Source of the DNA: Sulfuricurvum sp.
Lineage (GTDB): Bacteria; Campylobacterota; Campylobacteria; Campylobacterales; Sulfurimonadaceae
Length of the DNA: 64,000 bases
Reading direction: 5' to 3'
Assembly: GCF_036279695.1 (NCBI RefSeq)
Contig: NZ_DASUIQ010000065.1
Location: 52,601-116,600 of the forward strand
The notes under the pieces were generated by a model. That model was not told where the DNA came from. It saw nothing but the letters and a program-made list of their open reading frames with translations, and made no database searches. The translations under genes were made by a program, and so were the position numbers. The first letter of the stretch is position 1; each line of letters begins with the position of its first letter. Below, piece by piece: positions 1,542 through 25,750 of the stretch.

Positions 1542-1599
1542 ACACTCTTCCTCCTACTACTAAAACATTGTTCTCACTTATGCAGATTATTCTAAAACA

Positions 1600-4714: not shown

Positions 4715-4975
4715 AAGTTACACCTCAAAAATGGAATGTGAAATTTTAGGGTACTCTGGAAGATATAACAATGGTGTGAGCTTTCTAAATGAATCAGTTA
4801 AGAAAAAGTAATAGAAAAGGGGTCTATCCTACCCCATAGCGGGAAACAGGTGATTAAGATTGAGCCAAAATACTGTTGTTATATGTTATAAAATGTCATC
4901 ATTGTCGTTGTTGATTTAAGTTTCAGAGTAAAAAGTTTTCTAAAAGTATCAAAAAAAGAGGTAAAAAAAGAGCTC

Positions 4976-5491
4976 ATGAGTAAAAATGAAACAATTTTTG
5001 TCCGATTAATGATTTTCTTGATATGCGTGATACCTTTGCATGCAGAACTTACGATTGGATTGCTTGTATCGATAGATAATAATGCAAAACAAACCCTACT
5101 GTACCAAAACGCTTCGGTAGTATGTGAACCCTTCGGTGTCGTGACATTGGAAAAAATGCTCCAAAACAGTGCTTCGCCGCAAGAGTGCCGATCGGCTATT
5201 GACGCTTTTTATCTATCGCACCCGCATCAGAAACACTATGCTCGTGAGCATTTAATACTTCAGCAATCGTATCATTATGAGAGAATTGAACAGGGGTGTG
5301 TCCTATACGCAAACGGACCTGAGAGTTACAGTGAGATGCTTTTACGAGAAGGGTTAGCAGTTGTTGATCCTGCCTTTAATCAAAAAGAGTGGAATGCGAG
5401 ATTAAAGAGAGCCGAATTCGGGGCTACAAAAGAGAAAATCGGATTGCACGAAACGTTGATTCGAAAATGGTGTATTAAAGAAGAGAAGTAG
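4976..5491 (+). CDS. hypothetical exported protein
   Basis: N-terminal hydrophobic signal or anchor. Only a weak SNase-like string (LLREGLAVV). No catalytic motif recognised. Confidence 0.45.
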   Translation: MSKNETIFVRLMIFLICVIPLHAELTIGLLVSIDNNAKQTLLYQNASVVCEPFGVVTLEKMLQNSASPQECRSAIDAFYLSHPHQKHYAREHLILQQSYHYERIEQGCVLYANGPESYSEMLLREGLAVVDPAFNQKEWNARLKRAEFGATKEKIGLHETLIRKWCIKEEK

Positions 5492-5493
5492 AG

Positions 5494-5793
5494 TTAGTGT
5501 TTCTCATCGTTGGTTGTGAGATAAATCCAGTACTCTTTGTGGCTTTTTCCCTGATCGAGAAAGTAGAGCTGTAAAATGGCAACCCGATAGAGGGTTATCG
5601 CCATTTTGGCATACGGGACAGCCAGCGAGAGGGCGAGCCACCACGGCTGTTCTTTGCTCCCCTTGGAGAGCATCATCTCTTCGACTCCGATATTTTTACT
5701 GAGATAGAGCCCGAACGCGATCGAGAATACGAAATTGAGTATTAGCCCAAATATCGCGTAGGCAAAAAAATCGGGAGAGTCGAAATTGATCAT
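5494..5793 (-). CDS. hypothetical membrane protein
   Basis: Two or three hydrophobic helices. Tightly packed 5 nt downstream of ppa. Confidence 0.45.
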   Translation of the reverse strand: MINFDSPDFFAYAIFGLILNFVFSIAFGLYLSKNIGVEEMMLSKGSKEQPWWLALSLAVPYAKMAITLYRVAILQLYFLDQGKSHKEYWIYLTTNDEKH

Positions 5794-5798
5794 GAACC

Positions 5799-6320
5799 TT
5801 ACTCTTTGTAATTTTTGATAGCGTCTTCGAGGATTTTAGTCGCGGATGCTTTATCTTCAAACCCTTTTACTTTTACCCATTTACCCGGCTCGAGCATTTT
5901 GTACGTTTCGAAGAAGTTTTTGATTTTTGCCAACGTGTGTTTCGGAATATCGCCGAGGTCTTGGATCTCTTCAAACGTCGGATCGATTTTAGAGGTTGGA
6001 ACGGCAAGCAATTTTTCATCGATACCGCTTTCATCTTCCATAATGAGAACACCGACAAGGCGGCAGTTTGTTACACATCCCTCAACCATAGGATACTCGG
6101 TAAGGATTAAAATATCAGCCGGATCGCCGTCTTGTGAAAGCGTTTTGTTGACAAATCCGTAGTTTGCCGGATAGTACATAGCTGAATGCATTACACGGTC
6201 AAGTACCAATGCACCGCTCTCTTTTTCTACTTCGTATTTGATGTTTGATCCACATGCAATTTCAATAATTGCTTTGACTTTATCGGGATTTTCGCCGTAA
6301 CCGATTTTGCTTAGATCCAT
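5799..6320 (-). CDS. ppa: inorganic pyrophosphatase (family I)
   Basis: YPANYGFV and DGDPADILIL motifs, 173 aa. Confidence 0.92.
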   Translation of the reverse strand: MDLSKIGYGENPDKVKAIIEIACGSNIKYEVEKESGALVLDRVMHSAMYYPANYGFVNKTLSQDGDPADILILTEYPMVEGCVTNCRLVGVLIMEDESGIDEKLLAVPTSKIDPTFEEIQDLGDIPKHTLAKIKNFFETYKMLEPGKWVKVKGFEDKASATKILEDAIKNYKE

Positions 6321-6476
6321 GAGATACCTCTGTGTATAAAATAATGAGGCGGATTGTAACGAAAGAAACTAAAAGGTTCATTGAAAGTGCACCTAGTAAA
6401 TCTTTTTTAATGAACTTTATACTAAAATCACGCATCGTGTAAAGATTACGCGTGCAAATTAAACAGGGGATAGTGA

Positions 6477-6773
6477 ATGGCATTACTGAAAAAAGTAATG
6501 AAATATTTAACAATGTTTCAATCCAAGAATGCCCCGGAATCTCAAAACTTTGCAGCTGATGCATCGCATGATCGTGCACAAGGTGCCAAAGTAGCAGCAA
6601 TTGCAGCGGCATTGCACCACCATGATTTGGAAAACAGTGATGTTCGGGCAAAAGTAGCGGCGATTGCGGCTGCTTTGCACCATCATGAAATGGAAAACTC
6701 TCAAAATGGTGGCTTGTTAGGAATCGCGGCACTGGTAGCCGCAATTCACCACCGTAACAATATAAAGAAGTAG
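6477..6773 (+). CDS. small His-rich, internally repeated OadG-like peptide
   Basis: GGGGA SD 8 nt upstream. The repeats AKVAAIAAALHHH (aa 37-49 and 58-70) differ mainly at synonymous positions, and a third degenerate copy is IAALVAAIHH. Stop lies 12 nt before pycB. Confidence 0.65.
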   Translation: MALLKKVMKYLTMFQSKNAPESQNFAADASHDRAQGAKVAAIAAALHHHDLENSDVRAKVAAIAAALHHHEMENSQNGGLLGIAALVAAIHHRNNIKK

Positions 6774-6784
6774 GGATTACGTAA

Positions 6785-8623
6785 ATGGCAAAAAAATACA
6801 TCGATGTGATGGACACCACGTTCCGTGACGGCTTTCAGTCCGTATTCGGCGGTCGGGTGTTGATGGAAGATTTCTTCCCTGCGGTCGAAGCGGCTGCGGA
6901 GGCGGGAATCCGACATTTTGAATTTGGAGGCGGAGCACGTTTTCAAAGCCTTTTTTTCTATCTAAACGAAAATGCATTCGATATGATGGATCGTTTCCGC
7001 GCTATCGTGGGACCGGACGCAAATCTTCAAACCCTTGCACGCGGGGTTAATACGGTTATGCTCGATACCGGCAGCCGTGAAATGGTCGATTTACATGCCA
7101 AAATGTTCAAAAAACACGGAACGACAACGATCCGTAACTTTGATGCATTGAATGATGTCGAAAACCTTAAATACTCGGGTGAACGTATCGTTCATCACGG
7201 GTTGAAACACGAAGTGGTTGTCACCATGATGGATCTCCCTCCGGGGTGTGTCGGTGCGCATGATGTCGCATTTTATGAGAAAACACTTCGCGATATTTTG
7301 GATTCGGGCATTCCATACAGCTCTATCTGTTTTAAAGATGCGAGCGGAACTTCAAGTCCTCAAAAAGTGTATGAAACACTTCAAATGGCTCGTCGTTTGG
7401 TTCCTGAGGGGACCCATTTGCGTCTTCATACCCATGAAACGGCAGGGGTGAGTGTCGCGTGTTATCTTGCGGCACTCGATGCCGGAGTAGACGGTATCGA
7501 TATGGCGGCATCACCGGTGAGCGGCGGTACGTCTCAACCCGATATTTTGACGATGCTTCATGCCGTTAAGGGTAAAAACTACGATCTCGGCGGGCTTGAT
7601 GTCGAAAAGATCCTCAAATACGAAGATGTATTGGGCGATTGTTTGAAAGACTATTTCATGCCGCCGGAAGCGACGCAGGTTTCACCTCTCATCCCGTTCT
7701 CTCCGATGCCGGGGGGCGCACTGACTGCCAATACCCAAATGATGCGCGATAACAACATGTTGGATCGTTATCCTGAAGTTATCCGTGCAATGCGTGAAGT
7801 GGTTGAGAAAGGGGGTTACGGAACATCCGTTACTCCGGTATCTCAGTTCTATTTCCAACAAGCGCTGAACAACGCCCTTATGGGACCATGGAAAAAAATC
7901 GCACCGGGTTATGGCAAAATGGTATTGGGTTACTTCGGTAAAACCCCTACTGCACCCGATGCAGAAGTGGTTCGTATCGCTCAAGAGCAACTCAAACTCG
8001 ATCCGACAACAGACAATGCAATCGACATTGCCGATCGTGATGAGACAAAATCGATCGCTTACTGGACTAAAAAGTTGAGTGACGAAGGACTGGAAGCTAC
8101 CGATGAGAATATTTTCATCGCTGCTTCATGTGATGTCAAAGGGATTGCATTCCTCAAAGGGGAAGCGACCGTAAACGTTCGAAAAAATAGCCCGAAAGCG
8201 GCAGAATCAAAACAACCAAATCAATCAAAACAGGAGAATTTCACAATGGCAAATGGAACGTACACAGTAATCGTAGACGGACAACAATATAACGTACAAA
8301 TCGTAGATGGTAACGCAAATGTTCAATCAGTATCAGTAGCAGCGCCGGTTGCGGCTCCGGTAGCGGCAGCACCTGTAGCGGCACCGGTTGCAGCAGCTCC
8401 GGTAGCAAATGCAAACGCGATTTGTGCAGAACTTCCGGGTTCAGTATTCAAACTTGTTGCCGCTGTCGGTGACAGTGTCAATGCCGGTGATAAAATCATG
8501 ATTCTTGAAGCGATGAAAATGGAGATTGATGTTGTCGCTCCGCGTAACGGAAAAGTTACATCGATCAACGTCAATGTAAACGATAAAATCGAAGCAGGTC
8601 AAGTATTGGCAGTTGTAGAGTAA
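6785..8623 (+). CDS. pycB: biotin-carrying carboxyltransferase subunit (oxaloacetate decarboxylase alpha / pyruvate carboxylase subunit B type)
   Basis: N-terminal DTTFRDGFQS carboxyltransferase motif, Ala-Pro linker, and C-terminal biotinyl-lysine motif EAMKMEI. Confidence 0.88.
   Translation: MAKKYIDVMDTTFRDGFQSVFGGRVLMEDFFPAVEAAAEAGIRHFEFGGGARFQSLFFYLNENAFDMMDRFRAIVGPDANLQTLARGVNTVMLDTGSREMVDLHAKMFKKHGTTTIRNFDALNDVENLKYSGERIVHHGLKHEVVVTMMDLPPGCVGAHDVAFYEKTLRDILDSGIPYSSICFKDASGTSSPQKVYETLQMARRLVPEGTHLRLHTHETAGVSVACYLAALDAGVDGIDMAASPVSGGTSQPDILTMLHAVKGKNYDLGGLDVEKILKYEDVLGDCLKDYFMPPEATQVSPLIPFSPMPGGALTANTQMMRDNNMLDRYPEVIRAMREVVEKGGYGTSVTPVSQFYFQQALNNALMGPWKKIAPGYGKMVLGYFGKTPTAPDAEVVRIAQEQLKLDPTTDNAIDIADRDETKSIAYWTKKLSDEGLEATDENIFIAASCDVKGIAFLKGEATVNVRKNSPKAAESKQPNQSKQENFTMANGTYTVIVDGQQYNVQIVDGNANVQSVSVAAPVAAPVAAAPVAAPVAAAPVANANAICAELPGSVFKLVAAVGDSVNAGDKIMILEAMKMEIDVVAPRNGKVTSINVNVNDKIEAGQVLAVVE
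8336..8407 (+). repeat. degenerate tandem repeat encoding the (V/A)AAPVA Ala-Pro linker of PycB
   Basis: 72 nt encode VAAPVAAPVAAAPVAAPVAAAPVA between the carboxyltransferase and biotinyl domains. Confidence 0.8.
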
Positions 8624-11461: not shown

Positions 11462-12633
11462 CTAAAAATTTTGAACAATATGTATTACCGACCTACGGAC
11501 GCCAAAATGTCAGCTTCGTATCAGGTAAAAATGCGATTTTGATCGACTCTGAGGGGAAAGAGTATATCGATTTCGCCGCAGGGATCGCCGTGTGCAGTGT
11601 CGGACACTCCAATGATCGCCTCACAAAAGCTATATGTGACCAAGTGAGTAAAGTGATCCATGTTTCCAATCTCTATTACATCGCTCCCCAAGCCGAGTGC
11701 GCACGCCGTATCGTTGAACTCAGCGGTTACGATATGAAATGCTTTTTCGGTAACAGCGGAGCCGAAGCGAACGAGGGGGCGATCAAAATCGCTCGAAAGT
11801 ACGGAGAGGTCGAAGGACAGCCGAAGCGCTATAAAATCATCACCCTCGATCACTCGTTTCACGGACGTACGATTACGGCGCTCAAAGCAACGGGGCAAGA
11901 GTCGATGCACAACTATTTCGGGCCGTTTCCTGACGGGTTTGTGTACGCCAAAAATATCGATGAGATCGAATCGTTGATCGATGATCATACGGTTGCGGTG
12001 ATGATCGAACTCGTACAAGGGGAGGGGGGAGTTCAACCTCAGGATCGTGCTAAAGTACAAGCCCTATCAGCAATGCTAAAATCGCGCGATATTTTGCTGA
12101 TGGTGGATGAAGTACAGACGGGGATTTACCGCACGGGTGAGTTTTTAGCGTCTAACCTCTATGGGATCGAACCTGATGTGATTACGTTGGCAAAAGGTCT
12201 GGGGGGCGGTGTCCCTATCGGTGTCGTTATGACAAGCAAAAAAGATATTTTTGCACCCGGGGATCACGGTTCGACGTTCGGAGGGAACTATCTCTCGACA
12301 GCGGCGGCAAATGAAGTACTCGACATTCTCGAAGAGATCAAAGAGAGCGGTGAATTGGATGAACATCTCATCTATTTCGAAACCTCATTGGCTACCTTTG
12401 CAAAAGGGCATCCTGCCATCTTTTTGGAGCACGTCGGGCTTGGGATGATGCGCGGACTTCGTGTGTGTGATGCCGATACGCTGGGCAAGATCATCAATGC
12501 CGCGCGTGATGCGGGGGTAATCGTTCTCAAAGCGGGGCGTAATACACTCCGTTTCCTTCCGCCGCTCACGATTACGAAAGCCGATATTGATGAGGGGTTT
12601 GCACGTCTTGAAAAAGCGGTTGCGACGCTCTAA
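11458..12633 (+). CDS. argD: acetylornithine aminotransferase
   Basis: Class III aminotransferase motifs FHGRT, DEVQTG and LAKGLGGG. ATGA overlap with the upstream gene. Confidence 0.88.
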   Translation: MTKNFEQYVLPTYGRQNVSFVSGKNAILIDSEGKEYIDFAAGIAVCSVGHSNDRLTKAICDQVSKVIHVSNLYYIAPQAECARRIVELSGYDMKCFFGNSGAEANEGAIKIARKYGEVEGQPKRYKIITLDHSFHGRTITALKATGQESMHNYFGPFPDGFVYAKNIDEIESLIDDHTVAVMIELVQGEGGVQPQDRAKVQALSAMLKSRDILLMVDEVQTGIYRTGEFLASNLYGIEPDVITLAKGLGGGVPIGVVMTSKKDIFAPGDHGSTFGGNYLSTAAANEVLDILEEIKESGELDEHLIYFETSLATFAKGHPAIFLEHVGLGMMRGLRVCDADTLGKIINAARDAGVIVLKAGRNTLRFLPPLTITKADIDEGFARLEKAVATL

Positions 12634-12641
12634 GGAAGTAC

Positions 12642-13634
12642 GTGCAATTTAGTCAGTACATGAACGATTGGCTCTACGGTGAGTCAGGATATTATGCTTC
12701 GTATCGTCCGATCGGAAAAAAAGGGGACTTTTACACAGCGGTGAGCACCTCGAAGTTTTTTGGCGGCTCAATTGCCAACCATATCCTCAAACGGCTCGAT
12801 GAGGGGTTTTTGAGACCTGATTCGCTGATTTGTGAGATCGGGGCTCATCATGGCTATCTGTTGGCTGATATTATCGAGTTTCTTCATACCCTCCGACCGC
12901 AACTGTTGCAAACGCTCCGTTTTGGGATCGTTGAACGGTTTGAGAATCTGAGAACGGCTCAAAAGTCTTATTTTGATGAATCGTTCGGCAATGCGGTTGC
13001 ACTGGAACACTATAGCGATCTCGGTGAGTTAAACGAACAATCGACCTTTTTTATCGCAAACGAGATTTTTGATGCATTCGGATGTGAACTTTTTTACAAA
13101 GGGAAAATCGCTCGCGTAGAGAATCATGAGATTGTTTTTGATATTGATGATCCTAAAATCACGGCATTGGCTGAAAAATATAAGCAAGATCGAGGGGAAA
13201 TCGCACTAGGATACGAATCGTTTGCCGAGGCGATGAGCCGCGCATCAAAGCGTTTTGAATTTATGACATTTGATTATGGTGAGTTGGAAGCTCGGAGCGA
13301 TTTTTCGATCCGTGTTTATCAAGAACATCAGACGTTTCCCCTTTTCGATGAGGCTCTTAAGCGATTAGAGGCATTCGGTAAAAGCGATATTACGTACGAT
13401 GTGAACTTTACCCATGTTAAAGAGGCGTACGAGGCACAAGGGATCAAATGTGCACAGTACGCGACACAACTGGTGGCGTTGGTGGAGATGGGGATACTCG
13501 ATTTGTTGGCGATGCTCAAAGAACATGCGGGTGATGAGATTTATACCCAAGAGCTGGAAAAAGTGAAAATTTTGATCACCCCGTCCTTGATGGGAGAGCG
13601 GTTTAAGATGATACGTTTTATCAAGGAGTCGTAA
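12642..13634 (+). CDS. SAM-dependent methyltransferase, DUF185 (MidA/NDUFAF7) family
   Basis: LYGESGYY N-terminus and EIGAHHGYLLADI SAM-binding region. GTG start after AAGGAAG. Confidence 0.7.
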   Translation: MQFSQYMNDWLYGESGYYASYRPIGKKGDFYTAVSTSKFFGGSIANHILKRLDEGFLRPDSLICEIGAHHGYLLADIIEFLHTLRPQLLQTLRFGIVERFENLRTAQKSYFDESFGNAVALEHYSDLGELNEQSTFFIANEIFDAFGCELFYKGKIARVENHEIVFDIDDPKITALAEKYKQDRGEIALGYESFAEAMSRASKRFEFMTFDYGELEARSDFSIRVYQEHQTFPLFDEALKRLEAFGKSDITYDVNFTHVKEAYEAQGIKCAQYATQLVALVEMGILDLLAMLKEHAGDEIYTQELEKVKILITPSLMGERFKMIRFIKES

Positions 13635-15601: not shown

Positions 15602-15715
15602 CCATAGCTCCTAGGATAAAGTTAATTCTTTATTGTAGCGAGAAACTTATGAAATTTGCCACGGTACCTAATGGAAATTTTGGTAAACTTAGCAGATGAA
15701 ATGAAGGGAATCTTT

Positions 15716-16510
15716 ATGGTAGAAAGACTTTTAGGTTATATCGGTCGTCCATTTGTCCGATTTTATGAAACAATTGAGCGGTTCGGTCAGTTTATTCTAT
15801 TTCAATTACATCTTTTTAAACTCTATCCGGATATTTTCAAACGTCCGAAAATCTTATTCACTCAAATCGAAACGGTCGGTATGGGATGTATGGGTGTAAT
15901 CACCTTAACGGCGTTATTTACGGGAATGGTCGAAGCGATCCAGCTCTATAACGGGTTTCATCAATTCGGAGCCGAAAATTTTACCGGATATACGATTTTT
16001 TATTCGATTACCCGAGAATTGGGACCTGTTTTTGCCTCATTGATGCTGATCTCTCGCTCTATCAGTGCGATGGCGGCGGAGCTCGGGACGATGCGGGTGA
16101 GTGAACAGATCGATGCAATCGATATTTTGGGGGTGGATTCCAAAGGATATTTGATAACCCCGCGTATTGTGGCAACGGTTATTTCTCTGCCGTTACTGGT
16201 CATTTGGTTTGATTTTATCGCCATCAGTTCAGCGTATGTAATCTCAATAGGGGTATTGGGGATTAATCCTATCGCATATCAAGATGTATTGATGCGTTTG
16301 GGTGAGTTTGATGACATTATGATCGGGGTGATCAAAGCGGCGGTATTTGGATTTATTGTCAGCTCTATCGGAAGTTATATCGGTTACCATACAAGCGGCG
16401 GAGCACGTGGGGTAGGGCAATCGACGATTTATGCCGTTGTTTACTCGGCTGTCGCGATCTTTGTTGCTAACTACTTTTTATCGGCTTTGTTCTTATACTT
16501 GGATATGTAA
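15716..16510 (+). CDS. mlaE: MlaE-family ABC transporter permease
   Basis: 264 aa polytopic protein with MlaE/Ttg2B-like sequence. The ATG at 15716 after AAGGGA is preferred to the track's TTG at 15656. Confidence 0.75.
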   Translation: MVERLLGYIGRPFVRFYETIERFGQFILFQLHLFKLYPDIFKRPKILFTQIETVGMGCMGVITLTALFTGMVEAIQLYNGFHQFGAENFTGYTIFYSITRELGPVFASLMLISRSISAMAAELGTMRVSEQIDAIDILGVDSKGYLITPRIVATVISLPLLVIWFDFIAISSAYVISIGVLGINPIAYQDVLMRLGEFDDIMIGVIKAAVFGFIVSSIGSYIGYHTSGGARGVGQSTIYAVVYSAVAIFVANYFLSALFLYLDM

Positions 16511-16521
16511 AACGGGGAAAA

Positions 16522-17202
16522 TCAATCCCCCAACTCACTGAGCGGACGAAATTCATAGGTATCGGGATCATAATACTCGATAGCACCCGTTTCAATATCG
16601 TAATACCATCCGTGGATAAAGAGTTTTTCCTCTTCTACCATTTTTTTCACGTATGGATAGGTGAGAAGATTTTCGATTTGGGTCACAATGGAGAGCTGTT
16701 CTGTGGCACGTAGTAGCTCTTCGCGCGGTGCATTCTCTCCCAATGCGATCATTGCCATCGATTTTGCTTTTTCTCCGAGGGTAAGCCATTTGGCGGTATG
16801 GATCATCGAAGTGTCACACGATGATTTATAGAGTGCTTCGATAGCTCCGCAGTGGGAGTGTCCGCAAATAATGATTTCGGATACTTCCAATACCAATACC
16901 GCATACTCTATCCCTGCCGCCGTTGAGTGAAAATCCTCATCGGGTTTATAGGGTGCGACGAAATTGCCGACGTTACGGACGACAAACAGATCCCCCGGAC
17001 TCGATTGGACGATGAGATCGGGAATAACCCGAGAATCAGAACATCCGATAAAAAGGGCGCGAGGGTTCTGCCCCTCTTTGACGAGACTGAGTAGTTGCGT
17101 CTCATGTTTTTTAAAATAGGTTTGTTGAAACGTTTCGTTGCCGTCGGCAAACTCTTTGAGACGCTGGACGCTTTGATCGGCAGGATTTTTGCTTAGCGAC
17201 AC
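16522..17202 (-). CDS. can: beta-class carbonic anhydrase
   Basis: Zinc-ligand motifs CSDSRV and HSHCGA. Confidence 0.88.
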   Translation of the reverse strand: MSLSKNPADQSVQRLKEFADGNETFQQTYFKKHETQLLSLVKEGQNPRALFIGCSDSRVIPDLIVQSSPGDLFVVRNVGNFVAPYKPDEDFHSTAAGIEYAVLVLEVSEIIICGHSHCGAIEALYKSSCDTSMIHTAKWLTLGEKAKSMAMIALGENAPREELLRATEQLSIVTQIENLLTYPYVKKMVEEEKLFIHGWYYDIETGAIEYYDPDTYEFRPLSELGD

Positions 17203-17509: not shown

Positions 17510-18862
17510 TTAAAACCACTCAAGTAGTTTACTTACTTCGTCAATTTCGTAACATTTGATCGCTGTTTTCTCAATCGGTTTTTTAGGAATCAGCGCTTTG
17601 GTGATCTGTTGAGAAGCCGCCTCTTTGAGACGCTGATCGAGTTGGTATACTTCACGAATATCCCCTACGAGGGAGACTTCGCCGATAAAGACCGTCTCTT
17701 TGGAGATAGCACGGTTGCGAAAACTGCTGATGATGGCGGCGAGAATTGCCAAATCGGCGGAGGTTTCGGTGATTTTGATCCCCCCCGTGATATTGATAAA
17801 TACATCATAGCTGTTGAGAGGGATTTCGAGTTTGCGCTCCAGCAGTGCGAGAAGCATATTGAGGCGGTTGTTCTCAAACCCCGTTGCCTGACGTTTCGGA
17901 TTGGGGGCGTGAGTGTCGCTTACCAGCGCTTGTACTTCGAGGACGATGGGGCGAGTCCCCTCCATGATAACGGTGAGGGCGGAACCGCTTTGGGATTTTG
18001 TGCGGTTGAAAAAGCGCGAGGAGAGGTCTTTTGCCGAGACCAGACCGTCGTGACGCATCTCGAATACTCCGATTTCGCTTGTAGGTCCGAAACGGTTTTT
18101 AAACCCTCTCAAAATTCGCAGTTCATGTCCGCTGTCCCCCTCGAAATAGAGGACAACATCGACCATGTGTTCCAAGACGCGCGGCCCTGCAATGGAGCCC
18201 TCTTTGGTGATATGTCCGATGATGAAGATAGCGATACGGCGCTCTTTGGCGATACGCATCAGATCAAAGGTGATCTGTCTCACCTGCGTCACCGATCCGG
18301 GAGCCGAAGCGATCGTTTCGGAGTAGAGGGTTTGTATCGAGTCGATGATGATACACTCATAAGCGCGTTCATGCAGTTCGGCAAGGACTTGTTCCAGTCG
18401 TATCTCGGCGAGGAGATAGAGGTTATCGACATTGGCTCCCAGCCGGTTGGCTCGGAGTTTGATCTGCCCTTCGCTCTCTTCGCCCGAGACGTAGAGGACG
18501 TTGCGGTTTTGTTTCGCGAGATTCGAGCCGATTTTGAGGAGGAGGGTCGATTTCCCGACCCCCGGACTCCCGCCGATTAGCACCAATGAACCGGGGACGA
18601 CACCTCCGCCGAGAACCATATCCAGCTCGGCATCGTCACTGCTGAAGCGTTCGGTATGTTCTTCGACGATCTGAGTGATCTCTTTGGCTTTTACTCCGCC
18701 GGAGGGGGAAGAGGTAGAGGTGAGTTTGATCACCTCCTGCTGTTGCTCACTCAGTTCGACAAAGCTGTCCCATCCGCCGCAATTGGTACATTTTCCCATC
18801 CATTTGGGGGTAGTGAATCCGCAGTGTTGACATTCAAAGAGGACGTTTTTTTTCTTGGCCAT
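17510..18862 (-). CDS. radA: DNA repair protein RadA
   Basis: N-terminal zinc finger CQHCG...CTNCGGW, Walker A GGSPGVGKST, KNRFG motif, and Lon-like C-terminus. Confidence 0.95.
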   Translation of the reverse strand: MAKKKNVLFECQHCGFTTPKWMGKCTNCGGWDSFVELSEQQQEVIKLTSTSSPSGGVKAKEITQIVEEHTERFSSDDAELDMVLGGGVVPGSLVLIGGSPGVGKSTLLLKIGSNLAKQNRNVLYVSGEESEGQIKLRANRLGANVDNLYLLAEIRLEQVLAELHERAYECIIIDSIQTLYSETIASAPGSVTQVRQITFDLMRIAKERRIAIFIIGHITKEGSIAGPRVLEHMVDVVLYFEGDSGHELRILRGFKNRFGPTSEIGVFEMRHDGLVSAKDLSSRFFNRTKSQSGSALTVIMEGTRPIVLEVQALVSDTHAPNPKRQATGFENNRLNMLLALLERKLEIPLNSYDVFINITGGIKITETSADLAILAAIISSFRNRAISKETVFIGEVSLVGDIREVYQLDQRLKEAASQQITKALIPKKPIEKTAIKCYEIDEVSKLLEWF

Positions 18863-18986
18863 TTGGGAATCTTTTTTTAAAATTAACGTATATGTTCTTT
18901 ATTGTATCAAAGCTAATGTCAAAATTAGATTTATATATGTTTTTTTTGTTATTATTAAAAATATTTTTCAACATAAGGATCATTAA

Positions 18987-19442
18987 ATGCGATTTGTATT
19001 GAAATCACTCCTGATAATATCTCTGTCTCTTTCGCAAATGTACGGAGCCAGTATCTTTATACGGCAAAAACAGACGTTATTAAAAGAGACCCCCTCCTTT
19101 TTAGCCAAAACGGTTGCTACGTGTAAGTTCGGAGATGAAGTGAAAGTAATTGAAGAGAAAGAGAACTGGAAAAAGGTGAGCTTCGCTTCTAAAAAGGGGT
19201 GGATTCATGCATCATCAGCCGTCGACAATTTATCAATGAGTGAGGCCAATACAAATGCCCCTTCGTCGGTTTCCAGTAATGAAGTGATGCTGGCGGGAAA
19301 AGGGTTCAATAAACAAGTTGAAGCCAGCTATCGGGAACAAAATCCAAAAATGCGTTTTGATTTGGTCGATTCCATGGAGAAACGGACGATTAAGCCGCAG
19401 TTACAAACCTCTTTTGTCCTTAACGGGCAATTAAAACAATGA
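18987..19442 (+). CDS. exported SH3b-domain protein
   Basis: Signal peptide followed by a bacterial SH3-like segment (CKFGDEVKVIEEKENWKKVSFASKKGWIHAS). First gene of the cyclase operon. Confidence 0.6.
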   Translation: MRFVLKSLLIISLSLSQMYGASIFIRQKQTLLKETPSFLAKTVATCKFGDEVKVIEEKENWKKVSFASKKGWIHASSAVDNLSMSEANTNAPSSVSSNEVMLAGKGFNKQVEASYREQNPKMRFDLVDSMEKRTIKPQLQTSFVLNGQLKQ

Positions 19443-20356
19443 GACGGGGTGTCAATATGAAAAAAGCATTTTTTATGGGAACTTTTGTTTTGTTATTAAG
19501 CGGGTGCAGCACCAACATGCAGCAGCAAATTATGCCTTTGGCTGATACACTTTTGCCGCATACGGGGATTTCAGCGGAGAAAAGAGAACAAATACTGAAA
19601 ATCGGAAACTCTTTTGTCAAAAGTATCGAAGATATTACCCCCGATCAGGAGTATTACATCGGTCGAACCGTATCGGCCAAGGTTTTTTCCGAATACCAGC
19701 CCTACAAAAATCAATCGATGGATGAATACGTAACGATGGTCGGAAACCAGTTAAGCTATCACTCGGATACTCCGATAACGTTCGGGGGATACCATTTTCA
19801 GATTTTGAATTCCGATGAGATCAATGCATTTGCCGCTCCGGGCGGGTTTATTTTTATTACACGCGGAATGTTGCGCTGTGCACGGAATGAAGATCAATTA
19901 GCGGCAATTTTAGCGCATGAAATCGGACATATCAGCAACACACATGGGCTGAAAACGATTAAAAATAGCCGATGGAGCGAATTCGGATCTGTTTTAGCGG
20001 TAGAATCGGCAAAACAGTATTCGAAAAAAGATGTCGCGAAACTGGTAAGCGTGTTTGAAAACAGTATTAATGACGTTGTGAGTAATCTGATGGTAAACGG
20101 GTATTCGCGAGAATACGAATATGAAGCCGATGCAACGGCGATTAAAATTTTGGAGCGATCAGGGTATGATCCAACGGCGTTAACACAAATGCTTCATGAG
20201 ATGGAAAAGAAAGTGAAATCGGGGGACAAGGGGTTTGGTTCTACACATCCATTGCCGCTGGAGAGAATTGAGAATCTCAAAGAAGCACGTTTTGAAGCCG
20301 TGCAAATTCCGATGATAAGAAATCAACGTTTTGCTAAAAACATGAAAAATATTTAA
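19439..20356 (+). CDS. M48-family zinc metalloprotease lipoprotein
   Basis: Lipobox LLSGC, HEIGH zinc motif (AHEIGHISNTHG), and C-terminal GSTHPLPLERI. ATGA overlap with the upstream gene. Confidence 0.85.
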   Translation: MRRGVNMKKAFFMGTFVLLLSGCSTNMQQQIMPLADTLLPHTGISAEKREQILKIGNSFVKSIEDITPDQEYYIGRTVSAKVFSEYQPYKNQSMDEYVTMVGNQLSYHSDTPITFGGYHFQILNSDEINAFAAPGGFIFITRGMLRCARNEDQLAAILAHEIGHISNTHGLKTIKNSRWSEFGSVLAVESAKQYSKKDVAKLVSVFENSINDVVSNLMVNGYSREYEYEADATAIKILERSGYDPTALTQMLHEMEKKVKSGDKGFGSTHPLPLERIENLKEARFEAVQIPMIRNQRFAKNMKNI

Positions 20357-22422
20357 TGAAAATCAAAATTTACCAAGCGGCACTATGGGCATTCGTCTGT
20401 ACTCTTAGTCTCTATTTTTTTGGTAAGAGCCCGTTTCTTCAGACATTTGAAAATAAGCTATGGGATGTTCGGGTCGCGAATCTACAGAACGCGGAAGATC
20501 ATGACAAAAGTATAAAACTCATTTTGATCGATCAGAGTTCGTTGGACTGGGCAAAAGAGAACTATTCGCTTTCTTGGCCGTGGCCGCGTGAAATGTATGC
20601 GAAGATTATCGACTATTGTGTTCAGCACGGGGCTAAAGCTGTCGTCTTCGATGTTCTTTTTCAAGAGCCGTCGCTCTATGGGGTGGAGGATGATAAACGG
20701 CTGATAAGCGCATTAGAACATGCTAATGGTGTAGGCTCATTCGTTTTGAGCCGTAATCAGGGGAATGATCGCCGATGGCCCTCAGAGATACTCAAACCTT
20801 CCTATCCTCCTCTCTCCGAGGATCTATCTGCTAATGCTGTCTATCCTTTGGCCTCTTTTCCGGATAGGGCTATTGCAAAGGGGTATAAACAGATCGGTTC
20901 GGTCAACTCCCACCCTGATTCTGACGGTATTATCCGAAAGGCACATCTAACCTCGGTCTTTGACCTAGGTTATGTCCCCTCATTACCTATGGCGGCTTGT
21001 TTATCGACGAAAGAGTGCGCTCCGAGCGTCGATACGGATCTGAAAATCATTAATTACTATGGACCTGCGCAAACGTATGAGACGATTAATGCGGCATCTA
21101 TCGTTCAGGCTCAGTTATCGAACGAAGCGGGTGACATTCATCACGTCAAACAATATGATCTCAATCAAAGCTACGTTTTCATCGGCATGAGTGCCCCCGG
21201 TTTAATGGATTTGAAAAGTGTACCGATGCAAAATATCTATCCCGGAACGGAGATAAACGCCGCAGTTTTAGATAATATTTTGCATCAGAATTTTATCTCT
21301 GAACTCCCTTATTCTATTACGTATTCGTTGCTTTTTCTAGTCACATTCGTTACCTTTTTCGGGATACGTCATCATATATCGTTGAAGATCGGACTCCTCT
21401 ACTCAGCGATACTGTTGACCCTCGCAGTCGCCTCAAGCATTGTTTTGTACTACGGCGGTTTTTGGTTCAATGTGAGTATTTTTATTTTAGGGATAATCGC
21501 GTCGTGGTTTGTGGCGTTTAGCATTAACTATTTTCACGAAGGTGCACAACGCCGTTTTATTAAAAGCGCTTTTGCACGCTACATCAGTCCGCAAGTCATT
21601 GACGAACTTATCAAATACCCCGATAGACTCCGATTAGGGGGAAGTAAAGAGGTATTGACGATTCTTTTTACCGATATTGAGGGGTTTACCGCCATTTCAT
21701 CGAAGCTAGAACCGGAAGTTTTAGCCAAATTTTTGAATGAGTATTTGGGATTGATGAGTGATGTGATTTTGGAAGCCGGCGGTACGATCGATAAGTATGA
21801 AGGAGATGCGATTATCGCTTTTTGGAATGCGCCGCTGCATCAGAAAGATCATGCAAAACGTGCGGTGGCATCCGTATTGAACTGCCAACGCGCTATACAA
21901 GCCTACAATCCTATGTTAGAAAAGAAATACGGATTTAGCGTGAGAACACGCTTCGGTATACATACCGGAGAGGTCATTGTCGGAAACTTCGGTACCGAAA
22001 AGCGCTTTGATTATACGTTTATCGGGGATGCGGGGAATTTGGCTTCTCGACTCGAATCGGCGAACAAGCAGTTCGGATCGAGCTGTATGATGTCGGAAGA
22101 GACTAAAATGTGTTTGAATCGTGACGATCAAGTGATTGTTTGCAGGGAGCTTGGGACGATTCAGGTGGTCGGTCGAACGTCTGGCGTCAAGGTATTCGAA
22201 CCCATCGATAGCGCACTCTCAGATGAGTATATTCAGTGGATCGATGAGTATAATAGTGCATTGGAATACTTTTATCACGCCGATTTTGAGAGGGCTTTAT
22301 CTATTTTTGATAAACTCTCTTCCATCGATAGAGTGAGTGCCTCCTATGTCCGACTCATTCATAAAATCGCGACGGGAAATTTAAAATTCGAGAATGCAAC
22401 ATTGATTTTGGATGAAAAATAA
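20356..22422 (+). CDS. CHASE2-sensor class III adenylate cyclase
   Basis: TM helix, about 300 aa extracytoplasmic CHASE2-like region, and three TM helices. The cyclase domain has FTDIEGFT, DKYEGDAIIA (Lys at the adenine-specifying position) and IGDAGNLASRLE. TAATG overlap with the M48 gene. Confidence 0.85.
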   Translation: MKIKIYQAALWAFVCTLSLYFFGKSPFLQTFENKLWDVRVANLQNAEDHDKSIKLILIDQSSLDWAKENYSLSWPWPREMYAKIIDYCVQHGAKAVVFDVLFQEPSLYGVEDDKRLISALEHANGVGSFVLSRNQGNDRRWPSEILKPSYPPLSEDLSANAVYPLASFPDRAIAKGYKQIGSVNSHPDSDGIIRKAHLTSVFDLGYVPSLPMAACLSTKECAPSVDTDLKIINYYGPAQTYETINAASIVQAQLSNEAGDIHHVKQYDLNQSYVFIGMSAPGLMDLKSVPMQNIYPGTEINAAVLDNILHQNFISELPYSITYSLLFLVTFVTFFGIRHHISLKIGLLYSAILLTLAVASSIVLYYGGFWFNVSIFILGIIASWFVAFSINYFHEGAQRRFIKSAFARYISPQVIDELIKYPDRLRLGGSKEVLTILFTDIEGFTAISSKLEPEVLAKFLNEYLGLMSDVILEAGGTIDKYEGDAIIAFWNAPLHQKDHAKRAVASVLNCQRAIQAYNPMLEKKYGFSVRTRFGIHTGEVIVGNFGTEKRFDYTFIGDAGNLASRLESANKQFGSSCMMSEETKMCLNRDDQVIVCRELGTIQVVGRTSGVKVFEPIDSALSDEYIQWIDEYNSALEYFYHADFERALSIFDKLSSIDRVSASYVRLIHKIATGNLKFENATLILDEK

Positions 22423-22447
22423 GTTGACGTGAAAGAGGGAAAAGCAG

Positions 22448-24853
22448 ATGTCGGATACTAACACGCAAAAAAAGAAACTAAACCCGATAAATCCTCGTGT
22501 TATCGAGTTTTTGGGGACGGCAGGGACATTGTCTCCCAACAAAGAGACCACCTGTTTGCGTGTTTCGAAACACTGTGTCATCGATGCGGGAAATCTTATT
22601 CGCGGGATGGGGCGTGATATATTTGATATTGAACACATCTTTTTGACCCATTCGCATTTGGATCATATCGTCGACATTCCGTTCGTTGCCGAGCTTTTCG
22701 TGACGCATAAAAAAACACCGTTGAAAATTTATGCGTTGGCGGAGACGCTCAACGATTTGCGCGCATTTATTTTTAACTATCGTATCTGGCCGAATTTTCA
22801 AGAGATCGATTTATTGCTGGAAAATACCAAAACCGTAGATTTGATCGAGATACTCCCCGATAGGGCCTATTCGATCGATGATATTACGATCACTCCATTT
22901 CTCAATAATCACACCGAGGGGAGCTGCGGATTTGTGATTCGACATCAGGAAGACGGGGTCTTATTTACCTCGGATACCTATAAATGCGACCGAATATGGG
23001 AGCTGCTGGAAAGCGATCATTCGATCCACTCGTTGGTCATCGATGTCTCTTTTTCGTCTGAATACGAAGCGGTCGCCCGCAACAGCAAACATTTGACTCC
23101 CGCATTACTGGCGGAGGAGCGATTAAAATCCAAAAGAGACGATTTCGCGATTTATCCGGTTCATCTAAAATCCCATTTTGAGGCGGATATTCGACAGGAG
23201 TTAAAAGAATCAAAGATTAAGGGGCTTGTCCTCAAAGAGGTGGACGATTATACGGTTCTCCCGTTTGACCCGACGGTTCCGGTGTACAAAAAAGATCACA
23301 ACCACTCGTTTTCGTCCCAAATCCTGATGATCGGGACGGCACTCTCTTCGGAAAAAAATATCGATTCGCTTTTGGAACTCATCATCAAGCAGTCAAAACT
23401 CCTGACCAATGCCGATGCGGGTACGTTGTATCTGTACAATGAAACGTCCAAACAGCTTGAGTTCAAGGTGATCCAAAATGATACCTTGAACATCAGCATG
23501 GGGGGGCGATCTGAACCGATACAGTGGATACCGTTGGAAATGTATCTGCCGCTAGGGGATCAAAATCGGCATATGGTGGCAACGGTGTGTGCGCTCGATG
23601 GCTATATCATTAACATCCCCGATGTCTACGACTGCGAAGAGTATGATTTTAGCGGTACCAAAACGTTTGACGCTCAAACGGGGTATCGATCCCAGAGTAT
23701 GCTCGTTATTCCGCTCAAAGATCATGAAGACAATCTGATCGGAGTGCTGCAACTGATCAATAAGCGAAACAGTTTCGGTGATGTCGTCGAGTTTGAGTTT
23801 GATGATGAAGAGTTGGCGCTCTCCATCGGTTCTCAAGCCGCCGTTGCCCTCACAAAACAAAAACTGATCAACGACTTAGAGGTTTTATTGGAGTCGTTTT
23901 TACATACGATCAATATGGCCATCGAAGAGAAATCTCCCTATACGGCGGGGCATATCGATCGGATGATGGATTTGTCGTTGTCGTTGGCAAATGCGATCAA
24001 TATGGATCAGACAACATTCGCAGAGACATTCTATTCTGACGAGCAATTGAAAGAGATCAAGTTTTCGGCATTGATGCATGATATTGGGAAAATCGTCCTT
24101 CCCGAATATGTTGTGGACAAATCTACGAAGTTAGAAACCCTTTATGACCGTATTGAGACGGTTAAACTCAAATATGAACTGCTGAAACGGGATGCTCAGA
24201 TCGCCTTTTTGCATTCATCCCAATCGGATGAAGACAAAGCATTGCGGGATAAGACATTGAGCGCGTTGGACGAGGAGATTGCCTTTTTGGTTGCGGCAAA
24301 TGAAGGGAGCGAGTATTTTAGCGATGAGAATATTGAGAGAATCAAATCGATTGCGGCACGCCAAATCGAGTTGTTCGGAACGTGCGAACCGGTATTGAGC
24401 GAAGACGAAATCGCGAATCTCACCGTGCAAAAAGGGACATTGACGACGGAACAACGAGAGATTATCAACAATCATGCCGATATTAGTTTAAAGATGCTGC
24501 AAGCGTTGCCGTTTCCTAGAAAACTATCCCGTGTCCCCGAAATCGCAGGCGCCCATCATGAAAAGATCAACGGGTTAGGCTATCCGCGTGGATTAAAGGG
24601 GGATCAGCTGAGTATCGAGGCTCGTATTTTGGCGATCGCCGATATTTTCGAAGCACTCTCCGCCTCCGACCGACCGTATAAAAAAGCGAAAAAACTCTCT
24701 GAAATCATGAAAATCTTATCGTTTATGGCAAAAGATAATGAGATTGACAAAAATATTTTGTCGTTGTTGTATACGAGCGGTGTTTATAAGATATTCGCAA
24801 CCAAATATTTGCAACCGGAAAATATTGATGAGGTGGTTTTTGAGGGGTTTTGA
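22448..24853 (+). CDS. three-module protein: MBL-fold / class II cNMP-phosphodiesterase-like + GAF + HD-GYP
   Basis: N-terminus LGTAG...VIDAGN...THSHLDHI, a central GAF-like region (ADAGTLYLY...VLQLINK), and a C-terminal HD-GYP (HDIGK, GAHHEKINGLGYPRG). Confidence 0.8.
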   Translation: MSDTNTQKKKLNPINPRVIEFLGTAGTLSPNKETTCLRVSKHCVIDAGNLIRGMGRDIFDIEHIFLTHSHLDHIVDIPFVAELFVTHKKTPLKIYALAETLNDLRAFIFNYRIWPNFQEIDLLLENTKTVDLIEILPDRAYSIDDITITPFLNNHTEGSCGFVIRHQEDGVLFTSDTYKCDRIWELLESDHSIHSLVIDVSFSSEYEAVARNSKHLTPALLAEERLKSKRDDFAIYPVHLKSHFEADIRQELKESKIKGLVLKEVDDYTVLPFDPTVPVYKKDHNHSFSSQILMIGTALSSEKNIDSLLELIIKQSKLLTNADAGTLYLYNETSKQLEFKVIQNDTLNISMGGRSEPIQWIPLEMYLPLGDQNRHMVATVCALDGYIINIPDVYDCEEYDFSGTKTFDAQTGYRSQSMLVIPLKDHEDNLIGVLQLINKRNSFGDVVEFEFDDEELALSIGSQAAVALTKQKLINDLEVLLESFLHTINMAIEEKSPYTAGHIDRMMDLSLSLANAINMDQTTFAETFYSDEQLKEIKFSALMHDIGKIVLPEYVVDKSTKLETLYDRIETVKLKYELLKRDAQIAFLHSSQSDEDKALRDKTLSALDEEIAFLVAANEGSEYFSDENIERIKSIAARQIELFGTCEPVLSEDEIANLTVQKGTLTTEQREIINNHADISLKMLQALPFPRKLSRVPEIAGAHHEKINGLGYPRGLKGDQLSIEARILAIADIFEALSASDRPYKKAKKLSEIMKILSFMAKDNEIDKNILSLLYTSGVYKIFATKYLQPENIDEVVFEGF

Positions 24854-24862
24854 AGCATCTCG

Positions 24863-25750
24863 TTAGGGATGCTCGTTTTCTCCGTAGATCGCGTCCAAAA
24901 TGCCGTCCACAAATTGGTATTTGTCAAACGGTATCAGATGCTCGGGCTGTTCTCCGACACCGATGTAGAGGATAGGAAGCGAAAGGGCGTAGGCGATCGA
25001 GAAAACCGATCCCCCTTTCGCCGTTCCGTCGAGCTTGGTGATAATGATGCCGTCCACACCTACCATTTCATTAAATGCTTTGGCTTGGGCGATAGCCGAA
25101 GAGCCTTGCGTACCGTCTAGGATGAGGATTTTGCGGTGCGGTGCTCCGCTATGGGCTTTGTCACAGATACGGACGATTTTTTTCAGCTCATTCCCAAGAT
25201 TCGTTTGGGTGTGGAGCCGACCGGCGGTGTCGATGATTACCTGCTCAAATCCGCGTGCTTTTGCCGACTCGATCGTATCGTATGCTACGGCACTCGGATC
25301 GTGTCCTTGGCGAGACGAGATGATCGGGACATCGAGTTTGTCCGCCCAGCGGGTGAGTTGTTCGATGGCGGCGGCGCGGAAGGTATCTCCAGCTCCGAGG
25401 ATAACCCGCTCACCCTTGTTCAAATGGTGTTGCGCGAGTTTCGCGATGGTGGTTGTTTTCCCCGCCCCGTTAACGCCGATGATGAGGGTAACCGTCGGTT
25501 TTTCAGGATTATCGGGCAAAGTATTTTGGGCATAGCTGAGGGTTGCGAGGAGTTTGGAACGGAGCTGATCGCGGGTGATGTTCTCTTGATAGAGCTCTCG
25601 GAGGATGATTTCGACCAGATCGTATTCGACATCGGCTTCGAGGAGGATATTTTCGAGTTCATCTTTGCTGATCGTCTCTTTTTTCTCAGGGATAATCGCG
25701 CTGATCGCTTCGAGTGTTTTTTGAAGCCCCTTTTTGATAAATGAGAACAT
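24863..25750 (-). CDS. ftsY: signal recognition particle receptor FtsY
   Basis: SRP GTPase motifs GVNGAGKTTT and DTAGR. Confidence 0.93.
   Translation of the reverse strand: MFSFIKKGLQKTLEAISAIIPEKKETISKDELENILLEADVEYDLVEIILRELYQENITRDQLRSKLLATLSYAQNTLPDNPEKPTVTLIIGVNGAGKTTTIAKLAQHHLNKGERVILGAGDTFRAAAIEQLTRWADKLDVPIISSRQGHDPSAVAYDTIESAKARGFEQVIIDTAGRLHTQTNLGNELKKIVRICDKAHSGAPHRKILILDGTQGSSAIAQAKAFNEMVGVDGIIITKLDGTAKGGSVFSIAYALSLPILYIGVGEQPEHLIPFDKYQFVDGILDAIYGENEHP

Follow-up and report, generated by a model that had tools for sequence, protein, structure and literature searches.

Comparative genomics has found adenylate cyclases in 21% of Campylobacterota species, all of them of the CHASE2 type, and most of these cyclase genes cluster with those of a cyclic AMP (cAMP) phosphodiesterase (PDE), FecR-domain and TPR proteins, in arrangements spread by horizontal transfer (mBio 2022, PMC9239204). 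The factors that CHASE2 domains recognise were described as unknown as of 2016 (PMC5192318), and, within the literature searched, signal information on CHASE2 cyclases comes from those of Sinorhizobium meliloti only, in which a protein signal sensitive to protease (uL2) acts through NsrA, a protein of the outer membrane (PMC7529298, PMC13001267). Cyclic di-GMP (c-di-GMP) enzymes that respond to cAMP are also known: Tlr0485 is a cAMP-activated GAF-HD-GYP c-di-GMP phosphodiesterase (10.1101/2021.11.05.467447) and Bd1971 a cAMP-sensing EAL protein (PMC6717892). Here we analyse a 64,000-nucleotide stretch of a Sulfuricurvum sp. contig (NZ_DASUIQ010000065.1, positions 52,601 to 116,600; hereafter the window), in which four open reading frames (ORFs) on the plus strand at 18987-24853 encode an SH3b protein (gene 1), an M48 lipoprotein protease (gene 2), a predicted CHASE2 adenylate cyclase (gene 3) and a protein with metallo-beta-lactamase (MBL), GAF and HD-GYP domains (gene 4). 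These are the positions given by an earlier sequence-only reading of the window, which had also remarked that cAMP signalling is poorly documented in this phylum; the published record of its cyclases is indeed one of comparative genomics only (PMC9239204).

With a probability of roughly 0.6, we read the locus as a two-module pathway from the envelope to second messengers, in which SH3b, M48 and CHASE2 form the input and gene 4 is the reader and terminator. The concept of a CHASE2 cyclase/PDE cluster is not new, since the version with TPR and FecR partners has been published (PMC9239204). What is new is the SH3b/M48 partner set in a cluster of that type: the published survey mentions neither SH3 nor peptidase (PMC9239204), no paper in the searchable literature combines CHASE2 with M48, and searches of that literature for CHASE2 together with SH3, peptidase, lipoprotein or protease returned nothing relevant, so that the SH3b-M48-cyclase trio is undescribed there.

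The conserved trio and a lineage-specific fourth gene

A scan for relatives of the cyclase, with one genome per species, gave at least 591 matching stretches, and the best 80 loci were analysed. None of these 80 belongs to the Campylobacterota, whose contexts came from individual look-ups. Sixty-four loci were informative, with at least 1.6 kb of upstream DNA, and in 60 of them both an SH3b and an M48 gene lie upstream of the cyclase on the same strand; the automatic filter returned 57 of 64, to which we added L061 and L072 (ORF-calling quirks) and L073, where the genes are 2.7 kb away. The linkage of CHASE2 cyclases with M48 and SH3b genes, which the sequence-only reading had put forward for survey, is thus conserved. 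Trio hosts span at least six phyla, including Thermodesulfobacteriota, Spirochaetota, Verrucomicrobiota/Planctomycetes-Verrucomicrobia-Chlamydiae (PVC), Pseudomonadota (among them a cultured carrier, Nitrincola alkalilacustris), Fibrobacterota and Campylobacterota (L001, L002, L084, L085, L088 and L089). In a Krumholzibacteriia locus (L074) M48 and cyclase genes are present and the contig ends before any SH3b gene. Junctions are tight as well: with start codons picked by a homology-guided heuristic, SH3b and M48 genes overlap by 4 nucleotides in 36 of 62 loci and by 1 in seven, and the gap between M48 and cyclase is at most 25 nucleotides in 49 of 72.

The type of accessory partner follows the cyclase clade, not the host. 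Cyclases with SH3b/M48 partners form one clade, 35-61% identical across phyla, whereas FecR-type cyclases from the same genus are only 27-34% identical to them. Together with the cross-phylum linkage, this tracking of partner type with cyclase clade supports the earlier proposal that the exported pair belongs with the CHASE2 sensor.

The unit that is conserved consists of three genes instead of the four first proposed, as most trios are without gene 4. Full-length gene 4 orthologues (45-81% identity) came, among the matches listed, from Sulfuricurvum, Sulfurimonas, Arcobacter and Sulfurospirillaceae, and in seven of the eight contexts (the window, L083, L085, L086, L088, L090 and L091) the gene adjoins a CHASE2 cyclase, with three gene orders and both kinds of partner represented; in the eighth, L087, it stands alone. 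The order SH3b-M48-cyclase-gene 4 is common to the window, L085 and L083, and the operon lies between radA and ftsY in the first two (the L083 contig is too short for flanks). In L086 the same radA/ftsY slot holds TPR and FecR genes, a distinct CHASE2 cyclase (29% identical) and gene 4 (72% identical). In L088 gene 4 lies upstream of the trio at another site in the genome, and in L090 and L091 it is accompanied by TPR, FecR and cyclase genes. A search of all loci for FecR and TPR found them adjacent to the cyclase in L086, L090 and L091 only; the other FecR match, in L018, is on the opposite strand and about 8 kb upstream of the trio. Gene 4 is a Campylobacterota add-on, lineage-specific yet repeatedly linked to CHASE2 cyclases. 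Related architectures do occur elsewhere: one trio, from Desulfovibrionaceae, is accompanied by a convergent MBL-GAF-HD-GYP gene, and REC-GAF-HD-GYP genes lie upstream of two trios outside the Campylobacterota. The two CHASE2 systems are not mutually exclusive, because one Sulfuricurvum metagenome-assembled genome (MAG; GCA_028687865.1, source of both L002 and L090) carries a PDE-less SH3b/M48 trio and a separate gene 4-TPR-FecR-cyclase cluster.

The radA/ftsY slot itself is variable among relatives whose flank proteins share about 82-98% identity, and in L001, L002 and L089 it holds the trio alone, in the opposite orientation with respect to the flanks. The slot has the look of a place where sensory cassettes are exchanged. 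Between the window and Sulfuricurvum MAGs, RadA is 96% identical, local synteny is common and nucleotide identity of the flanks is about 77%. In the nearest relative (L085, cyclase at 4884-6944) the flanking genes are 90-97% identical to those of the window, SH3b 78%, M48 80% and gene 4 81%, and the cyclase 61% (CHASE2 57%, transmembrane block 46%, cyclase domain 70%).

Domain evidence and competing readings

The product of gene 4 is cytoplasmic, with no transmembrane segment by hydropathy, and its Pfam scores are 134.5 bits for HD_5 (PF13487), 42.5 for GAF, 50.1 for Lactamase_B_2 and 33.3 for PDEase_II (domain limits of all four products are in Table 1). The metal site of the MBL domain (H68-x-H70-L-D72-H73, read HSHLDH, with H155, D176 and H239) is invariant in 120 homologues; precomputed matches to PF02112 and PF23023 (Anti-Pycsar_Apyc1) exist on the gene 4 family, and the score against NF041851 is 20 bits (cut-off 400). 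In the GAF domain the NKFDE residues N438, K439, F449, D453 and E454 are kept in 109-120 of the 120 homologues, and the best PDB matches are the cAMP-binding GAFs of CyaB2 (1YKD, 2.2e-16), followed by the GAF domains of PDE5, PDE2A and PDE10A. These features point to a GAF of the type that binds cyclic nucleoside monophosphates (cNMPs), for which cAMP would be the ligand. The HD-GYP motifs (H544-D545, H703-H704-E705, G711-Y712-P713) are kept in 114-119 of the 120 homologues, and the nearest solved structures are the cyclic GMP-AMP (cGAMP) phosphodiesterase V-cGAP3 (5Z7C, 7.2e-23) and the HD-GYP protein PmGH (4MCW). Between HDIGK and HHE...GYP (residues about 550-700; 24080-24560) lies an insertion of about 100 residues, predicted to be helical or charged, because of which Pfam matches HD_5 in two stretches. 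A plausible c-di-GMP substrate is at hand, as the window also encodes a PAS-GGDEF-EAL protein (3-1553, minus strand, truncated where the window begins) and a GGDEF protein (47817-49082, minus strand).

The sequence-only reading had described gene 4 as a degrading and sensing enzyme that supplies the off-switch. A PDE-like MBL domain and a GAF of the cNMP-binding type are there, yet the protein is not simply a degrading one, given that both its GAF and its HD-GYP domains are intact. The more likely role, judged from these motifs, is that of a cAMP reader which couples cAMP to hydrolysis of c-di-GMP or cGAMP, besides degrading cAMP. A narrower version would make the locus one closed cAMP module, with gene 4 as a dedicated off-switch only and SH3b and M48 presenting or processing a ligand. 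The class II PDE signature HxHLDH with its complete metal site is what one would expect of such a switch, and in some other phyla a stand-alone MBL gene follows the cyclase, 4-176 nucleotides downstream, in the trios L045, L047 and L070 and in the M48-cyclase pair L074 (hosts: Kiritimatiellae, Verrucomicrobiota and Krumholzibacteriia). These genes, which have only sub-threshold RNase Z and cNMP-PDE matches in NCBIfam, may be independent recruitments of a cAMP phosphodiesterase. We nevertheless hold the closed module to be unlikely: two thirds of gene 4 consist of a cNMP-type GAF and an intact HD-GYP domain, the latter most similar to phosphodiesterases of cGAMP and c-di-GMP and unneeded for a pure cAMP off-switch, and a gene of this kind is not near most trios.

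Gene 3 was expected to encode an extracytoplasmic CHASE2 sensor and a class III cyclase, and Pfam matches both, CHASE2 (PF05226) at 147.5 bits over residues 16-318 and Guanylate_cyc (PF00211) at 75.6 bits (cut-off 21.9). We place CHASE2 outside the cytoplasm because it is flanked by an N-terminal transmembrane helix and a transmembrane block. Its motifs WPWPRE and SAPGLxD are invariant. In the cyclase domain the metal-binding D440 and D484 and the transition-state N561 and R565 are invariant in 81 of 81 cyclases, as is the substrate-specifying K480, the adenine-specifying lysine that the sequence-only reading had picked out in DKYEGDA (residues 479-485); T554, the Thr that class IIIb enzymes have where others have Asp, is present in 79 of the 81, with Ser in the other two. 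K480 aligns with the Lys of CyaB, with the engineered Lys in 6FHT and with the Glu of the guanylate cyclase Cya2 (2W01), and the closest solved cyclases are Pseudomonas aeruginosa CyaB (3R5G, 4.8e-34), Cya2 and CyaC. By K480/T554, gene 3 would encode a class IIIb adenylate cyclase with cAMP as its product. The CHASE2 domain was modelled with AlphaFold2 (20437-21330) as an alpha/beta fold with a predicted local distance difference test score (pLDDT) of 93.5, a predicted template modelling score of 0.92 and no residue below pLDDT 70. Foldseek found no meaningful match to this model in the PDB (best E = 0.05, template modelling score at most 0.22), nor did a sequence search of the PDB find a relative, and no member of this fold appears to have been solved.

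Gene 2 carries the features first read in it, an M48 protease (Peptidase_M48, PF01435, 118.5 bits) with an LLSGC lipobox and a HEIGH motif (residues 160-164). The lipobox (L-S-G-C23, which fits the pattern [LVI][ASTVI][GAS]C) has its Cys kept in 63 of 65 homologues, the HExxH residues H160/E161/H164 are present in all 65 and the third zinc ligand, E227, in 64. Its PDB relatives are a Geobacter M48 structure (3C37, 2.5e-27) and BepA (6AIT/6SAR, 2e-20), and it reaches 109 bits against the NCBIfam BepA model NF052400 (cut-off 570; model positions 10-262 of 483). As the protein ends after the protease domain, has no TPR domain and scores 109 against 570 bits, it is BepA-like but not BepA. His270 is kept in 64 of the 65 homologues and falls on residue 246 of 6SAR (BepA His246) in the alignment; in BepA, as in other M48 enzymes, the His at this position acts as a plug that autoinhibits the protease (10.1101/2020.07.07.192476; PMC7950410; PMC13655028). 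Because this plug is retained, we predict that the gene 2 protease is latent until activated.

Gene 1 is, as first read, an exported SH3b protein, with a signal peptide at residues 1-21 and an SH3_3 match (PF08239) that is borderline but real (28.6 bits, cut-off 27) and recurs in 81 of 81 aligned family members. Its AlphaFold2 model, for which the alignment was built from representative-search sequences, has a pLDDT of 86 and comprises an SH3b barrel, a linker of low pLDDT and a confident C-terminal module of four helices. By Foldseek of the model, the barrel fits onto the SH3b domains of cell-wall hydrolases with a root mean square deviation of 1.5-2 A. The helical module bears the signature E99-x2-LAGKGF-x3-VE112 ... 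D128xME131 ... F143 ... G147 and holds the family's most conserved positions (E99, L102-A-G-K-G-F107, V111-E112, M130-E131, F143, G147); it has no Pfam match in any of the 81 family members, and Foldseek of the model against the PDB gave no structural match beyond the SH3 barrel. An exhaustive search put the family at about 512 clusters at 50% identity (E <= 1e-10) and was used for this figure in place of a word-index search, which found seven proteins. No SH3b-M48 or SH3b-cyclase fusion is visible among the best 150 SH3b matches. Such an anatomy, in which a flexible linker joins an anchor domain to an invariant module, would fit a tethered substrate or adaptor.

From these parts a pathway can be proposed. 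An envelope cue, for which the peptidoglycan state and an unfolded or mislocalised envelope protein are candidates, would lift M48 autoinhibition; the active protease would then cut the SH3b protein, probably in its linker, or another periplasmic protein; and the cleavage would alter what binds CHASE2 and so switch cAMP synthesis. In the cytoplasm, cAMP would bind the NKFDE-type GAF of gene 4 and regulate the catalytic domains on either side, the MBL domain hydrolysing cAMP as feedback and the HD-GYP domain hydrolysing c-di-GMP or 3'3'-cGAMP, by which the envelope signal would reach the organism's c-di-GMP network. Proteolysis-gated control of CHASE2 is the step we favour for the input, because the protease is predicted to be latent and lipid-anchored, because of the SH3b anatomy and because the CHASE2 cyclases studied sense protein; taken as a specific step it falls a little short of even odds, with simple co-receptor binding and direct processing of the receptor as the alternatives. 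A more specific and distinctly tentative version would have the SH3b-M48 pair as the input machinery of this large CHASE2 clade, the protease, once an envelope cue has lifted its autoinhibition, cutting a peptidoglycan-tethered SH3b protein in its linker and thereby freeing the LAGKGF module to serve as ligand or anti-ligand. If that were so, CHASE2 would sense a periplasmic protein or peptide, not a small molecule, and the triad would be a new proteolytic trans-envelope device feeding cAMP and, via gene 4, c-di-GMP. Whichever input applies, the conserved, coupled partners of the trio make CHASE2 sensing open to direct experiment. Gene 4, for its part, is a candidate node at which one protein would read cAMP and degrade two messengers, and it suggests how free-living Campylobacterota may wire a sporadically acquired cAMP system into a large c-di-GMP network.

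Direct processing of the receptor would mean that M48 trims or degrades CHASE2 itself, in maturation or turnover, with SH3b as adaptor or inhibitor and no separate ligand fragment. The tight M48-cyclase spacing, the latent BepA-like protease with its conserved His plug and the faster divergence of the CHASE2 domain relative to the neighbouring genes can all be read in this way. The CHASE2 model is compact, however, with every residue at or above pLDDT 70 and no obvious exposed disordered segment, and it is the SH3b protein instead that has a low-confidence linker suited to cleavage, so we regard processing of the receptor as rather improbable. We find it still less probable that SH3b and M48 serve general envelope maintenance, as in quality control of peptidoglycan or outer-membrane proteins, and are merely co-expressed with or regulated by the cyclase. 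It is true that the M48 protein has its closest relatives among quality-control proteases of the BepA type, that SH3b domains are typical of cell-wall enzymes and that Mla genes lie nearby in several loci. Yet the translationally coupled linkage persists across phyla while its surroundings change, the partners switch to TPR/FecR exactly where the cyclase clade switches, and both proteins fall below the cut-off of every curated housekeeping family in NCBIfam. An anti-phage cyclic-nucleotide system of the Pycsar kind is very unlikely, for although the cyclase domain matches the PADLOC PycC models (best 8.7e-32), gene 4 has the precomputed Anti-Pycsar_Apyc1 match and the locus varies between relatives, those PycC models are ordinary class III cyclase homologues (the generic homology on which we rejected a defence-system reading of the locus), K480/T554 are residues that select a purine substrate, the cyclase itself is a receptor in the membrane whose sensor is periplasmic, and there is neither a cNMP-activated effector gene nor a PADLOC match for SH3b, M48 or gene 4.

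Several observations weigh against the two-module pathway itself. On the side of gene 4, the PDEase_II match (PF02112, 33.3 bits, cut-off 23.7) covers residues 61-121 only, and the MBL domain matches yeast PDE1 (4OJV) weakly, at E = 0.0019. Gene 4 was not found in most trios, and the profile of its MBL domain does not recognise the stand-alone MBL genes, except weakly that of L070, so that their equivalence to gene 4 is positional only. On the side of the input, four close relatives of the cyclase (L022, L049, L050 and L071) are without both partners and have unrelated neighbours, which shows that adjacent partners are not a condition for the cyclase to exist. For the SH3b domain, binding to peptidoglycan is a candidate function suggested by fold resemblance. 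The cyclase has diverged more than SH3b and M48 between the window and L085, which is not the simple pattern of tightly co-evolving partners and may be due to replacement of the allele or to rapid evolution of the sensor. Finally, neither kind of transcription signal is in clear excess in the region: there are 16 promoter-like sites where shuffles give 12.9 +/- 4.0, and 12 terminator-like sites where they give 7.6 +/- 2.9, so that the hairpin after gene 4 (Table 1) is weak evidence of a terminator.

Layout, junctions and flanking genes

The four genes are probably co-transcribed. Since the counts of promoter-like and terminator-like sites do not exceed those of shuffled sequence, it is the packing of the genes and the comparison with relatives that argue for this, and for the same reason the promoter-like site of Table 1 is not significant alone. 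All three junctions described from the sequence can be read there: the ATGA start/stop overlap of genes 1 and 2 at 19439-19442, the TAATG overlap of genes 2 and 3 at 20354-20358, and the 25-nucleotide spacer between genes 3 and 4 (22423-22447), inside which lies a Shine-Dalgarno-like run, AGAGGGA. The first of them depends on where gene 2 begins. A second ATG stands at 19457 (Met7), the M48 gene of the nearest relative starts at residue 7 of the window protein in the alignment, and gene calls in relatives leave gaps of 6-13 nucleotides between SH3b and M48. With a start at 19457, MKKAFFMGTFVLLLSGC makes a canonical signal peptide of a lipoprotein, and genes 1 and 2 would be separated by 14 nucleotides instead of overlapping. 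The alignment suggests that this second ATG may be the true start. Rfam and tRNA scans of the window returned no matches.

Table 1. Positions of the genes, domains and sites discussed; nucleotide positions are those of the window, or of the named locus for the last four rows.
Feature	Positions	Strand	Residues	Basis or remark
Gene 1, SH3b protein	18987-19442	+		151 aa ORF
SH3b barrel (gene 1)			22-79	AlphaFold2 model and Pfam
Linker (gene 1)			80-96	low pLDDT in AlphaFold2 model
C-terminal four-helix module (gene 1)			97-147	confident in AlphaFold2 model
Gene 2, M48 lipoprotein protease	19439-20356	+		305 aa ORF
Gene 3, CHASE2 cyclase	20356-22422	+		688 aa ORF
N-terminal transmembrane helix (gene 3)			before CHASE2 domain	hydropathy
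CHASE2 domain (gene 3)	20401-21309	+	16-318	periplasmic
Three transmembrane helices (gene 3)	21304-21534	+	317-393	hydropathy
Class IIIb cyclase domain, predicted (gene 3)	21649-22179	+	432-608	
Helical tail (gene 3)			C-terminal end	
Gene 4, MBL-GAF-HD-GYP protein	22448-24853	+		801 aa ORF
MBL domain, class II PDE/Apyc1-like (gene 4)	22505-23302	+	about 20-285	
GAF domain, cNMP type (gene 4)	23330-23872	+	295-475	
HD-GYP domain (gene 4)	23885-24850	+	480-801	
radA	17510-18862	-		flank on gene 1 side
Intergenic region	18863-18986			124 nt, AT-rich, between divergent radA (-) and gene 1
Promoter-like site	18855-18883			consensus scan
AAGGA ribosome-binding site	8 nt 5' of gene 1 ATG			sequence
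Terminator-like hairpin	24854-24873	+		8-bp stem, T-rich tail; directly 3' of gene 4
ftsY	24863-25750	-		flank on gene 4 side
Stand-alone MBL gene, L045	7977-8849			
Stand-alone MBL gene, L047	12116-12988			
Stand-alone MBL gene, L070	12063-12845			
Stand-alone MBL gene, L074	2524-3261			

The terminator-like hairpin overlaps the 3' end of the convergent ftsY. Two genes upstream of the operon, at 16522-17202 on the minus strand, the window encodes a beta-carbonic anhydrase. Although a response to bicarbonate is common among class IIIb cyclases, this proximity is probably coincidental, because the block of carbonic anhydrase, a hypothetical gene and radA is syntenic in relatives whichever cassette follows it. 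G+C content falls to 0.366 at 48001-50000, against 0.40-0.54 elsewhere in the window, and this dip overlaps the region of the GGDEF gene.

Two kinds of gene recur around trios in other genomes. MlaE-like genes of one BLAST cluster, to which the Pfam-annotated MlaE of L001 belongs, are found at a distance of 2-5 kb from the trio in the window (15656-16510) and in seven loci (L001 at 12511-13305, L033, L038, L045, L047, L053 and L070), PVC-group genomes among them, with ABC-ATPase-like and MlaD-like neighbours. Synteny within lineages could account for this proximity, as could a connection to outer-membrane lipid homeostasis. Directly 3' of the cyclase, within about 20 nucleotides (overlapping it in L053), a gene of about 136 codons is found in L033, L053, L058, L062 and L064, whose hosts are Verrucomicrobiota, Victivallales and an unclassified PVC bacterium. 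Its product looks QueF-like, and the arrangement is probably lineage synteny.

Comparison with described systems

Each product has relatives of known function from which it departs in some respect. The M48 protein shares with BepA of Escherichia coli (and with LoiP and YcaL) the M48 fold, the HExxH + Glu zinc site and the periplasmic location, and with BepA also the autoinhibitory residue equivalent to His246; it differs from BepA in having no TPR domain, in being anchored as a lipoprotein and in lying in a signalling operon, whereas BepA is encoded alone. The MBL domain of gene 4 resembles class II PDEs (yeast PDE1, PF02112) and phage Apyc1 in its fold, its HxHLDH motif and its full set of metal ligands; in contrast to these, its match is weak and partial and it is fused to GAF and HD-GYP domains. 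As a whole, gene 4 is most readily likened to Tlr0485 and Bd1971, in which a cNMP-binding sensor domain is fused to a c-di-GMP phosphodiesterase and cAMP and c-di-GMP signalling cross-talk, but it adds an N-terminal MBL domain and an HD-GYP insertion of about 100 residues, and it adjoins a cyclase gene.

At the level of the locus, a CHASE2 kinase operon of Burkholderia and Pseudomonas (PMC5192318) likewise has a secreted neighbour of peptidoglycan-binding type, with LysM there and SH3b here. Its output is a histidine kinase with a response regulator, its partner has a FecR domain and it is without a protease. Closer in output are the CHASE2 receptor cyclases CyaD1, CyaD2 and CyaK of S. meliloti, which act through NsrA and Clr in a pathway that needs an envelope accessory protein and answers a protein signal, and with which FecR-domain and TPR-domain genes are associated. 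There, however, the accessory protein NsrA is an outer-membrane beta-barrel, not a protease or an SH3b protein, and the output is the CRP-family regulator Clr, of which none is seen at the window locus.

The nearest counterparts remain the clusters published for Campylobacterota (PMC9239204), which have in common with the window the phylum, a class III cyclase with CHASE2 and a pair of exported accessory proteins encoded upstream. Adjacent to them is also an orthologue of the MBL-GAF-HD-GYP gene, 72% identical in L086, where it occupies the very radA/ftsY slot of the window. The window has SH3b and M48 in place of TPR and FecR, and its cyclase is of another clade, whose SH3b/M48 trio extends far outside the phylum, usually without a PDE. 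Because the same slot and the same PDE take either SH3b/M48 or TPR/FecR, the accessory proteins appear to be exchangeable, clade-specific adaptors of CHASE2.

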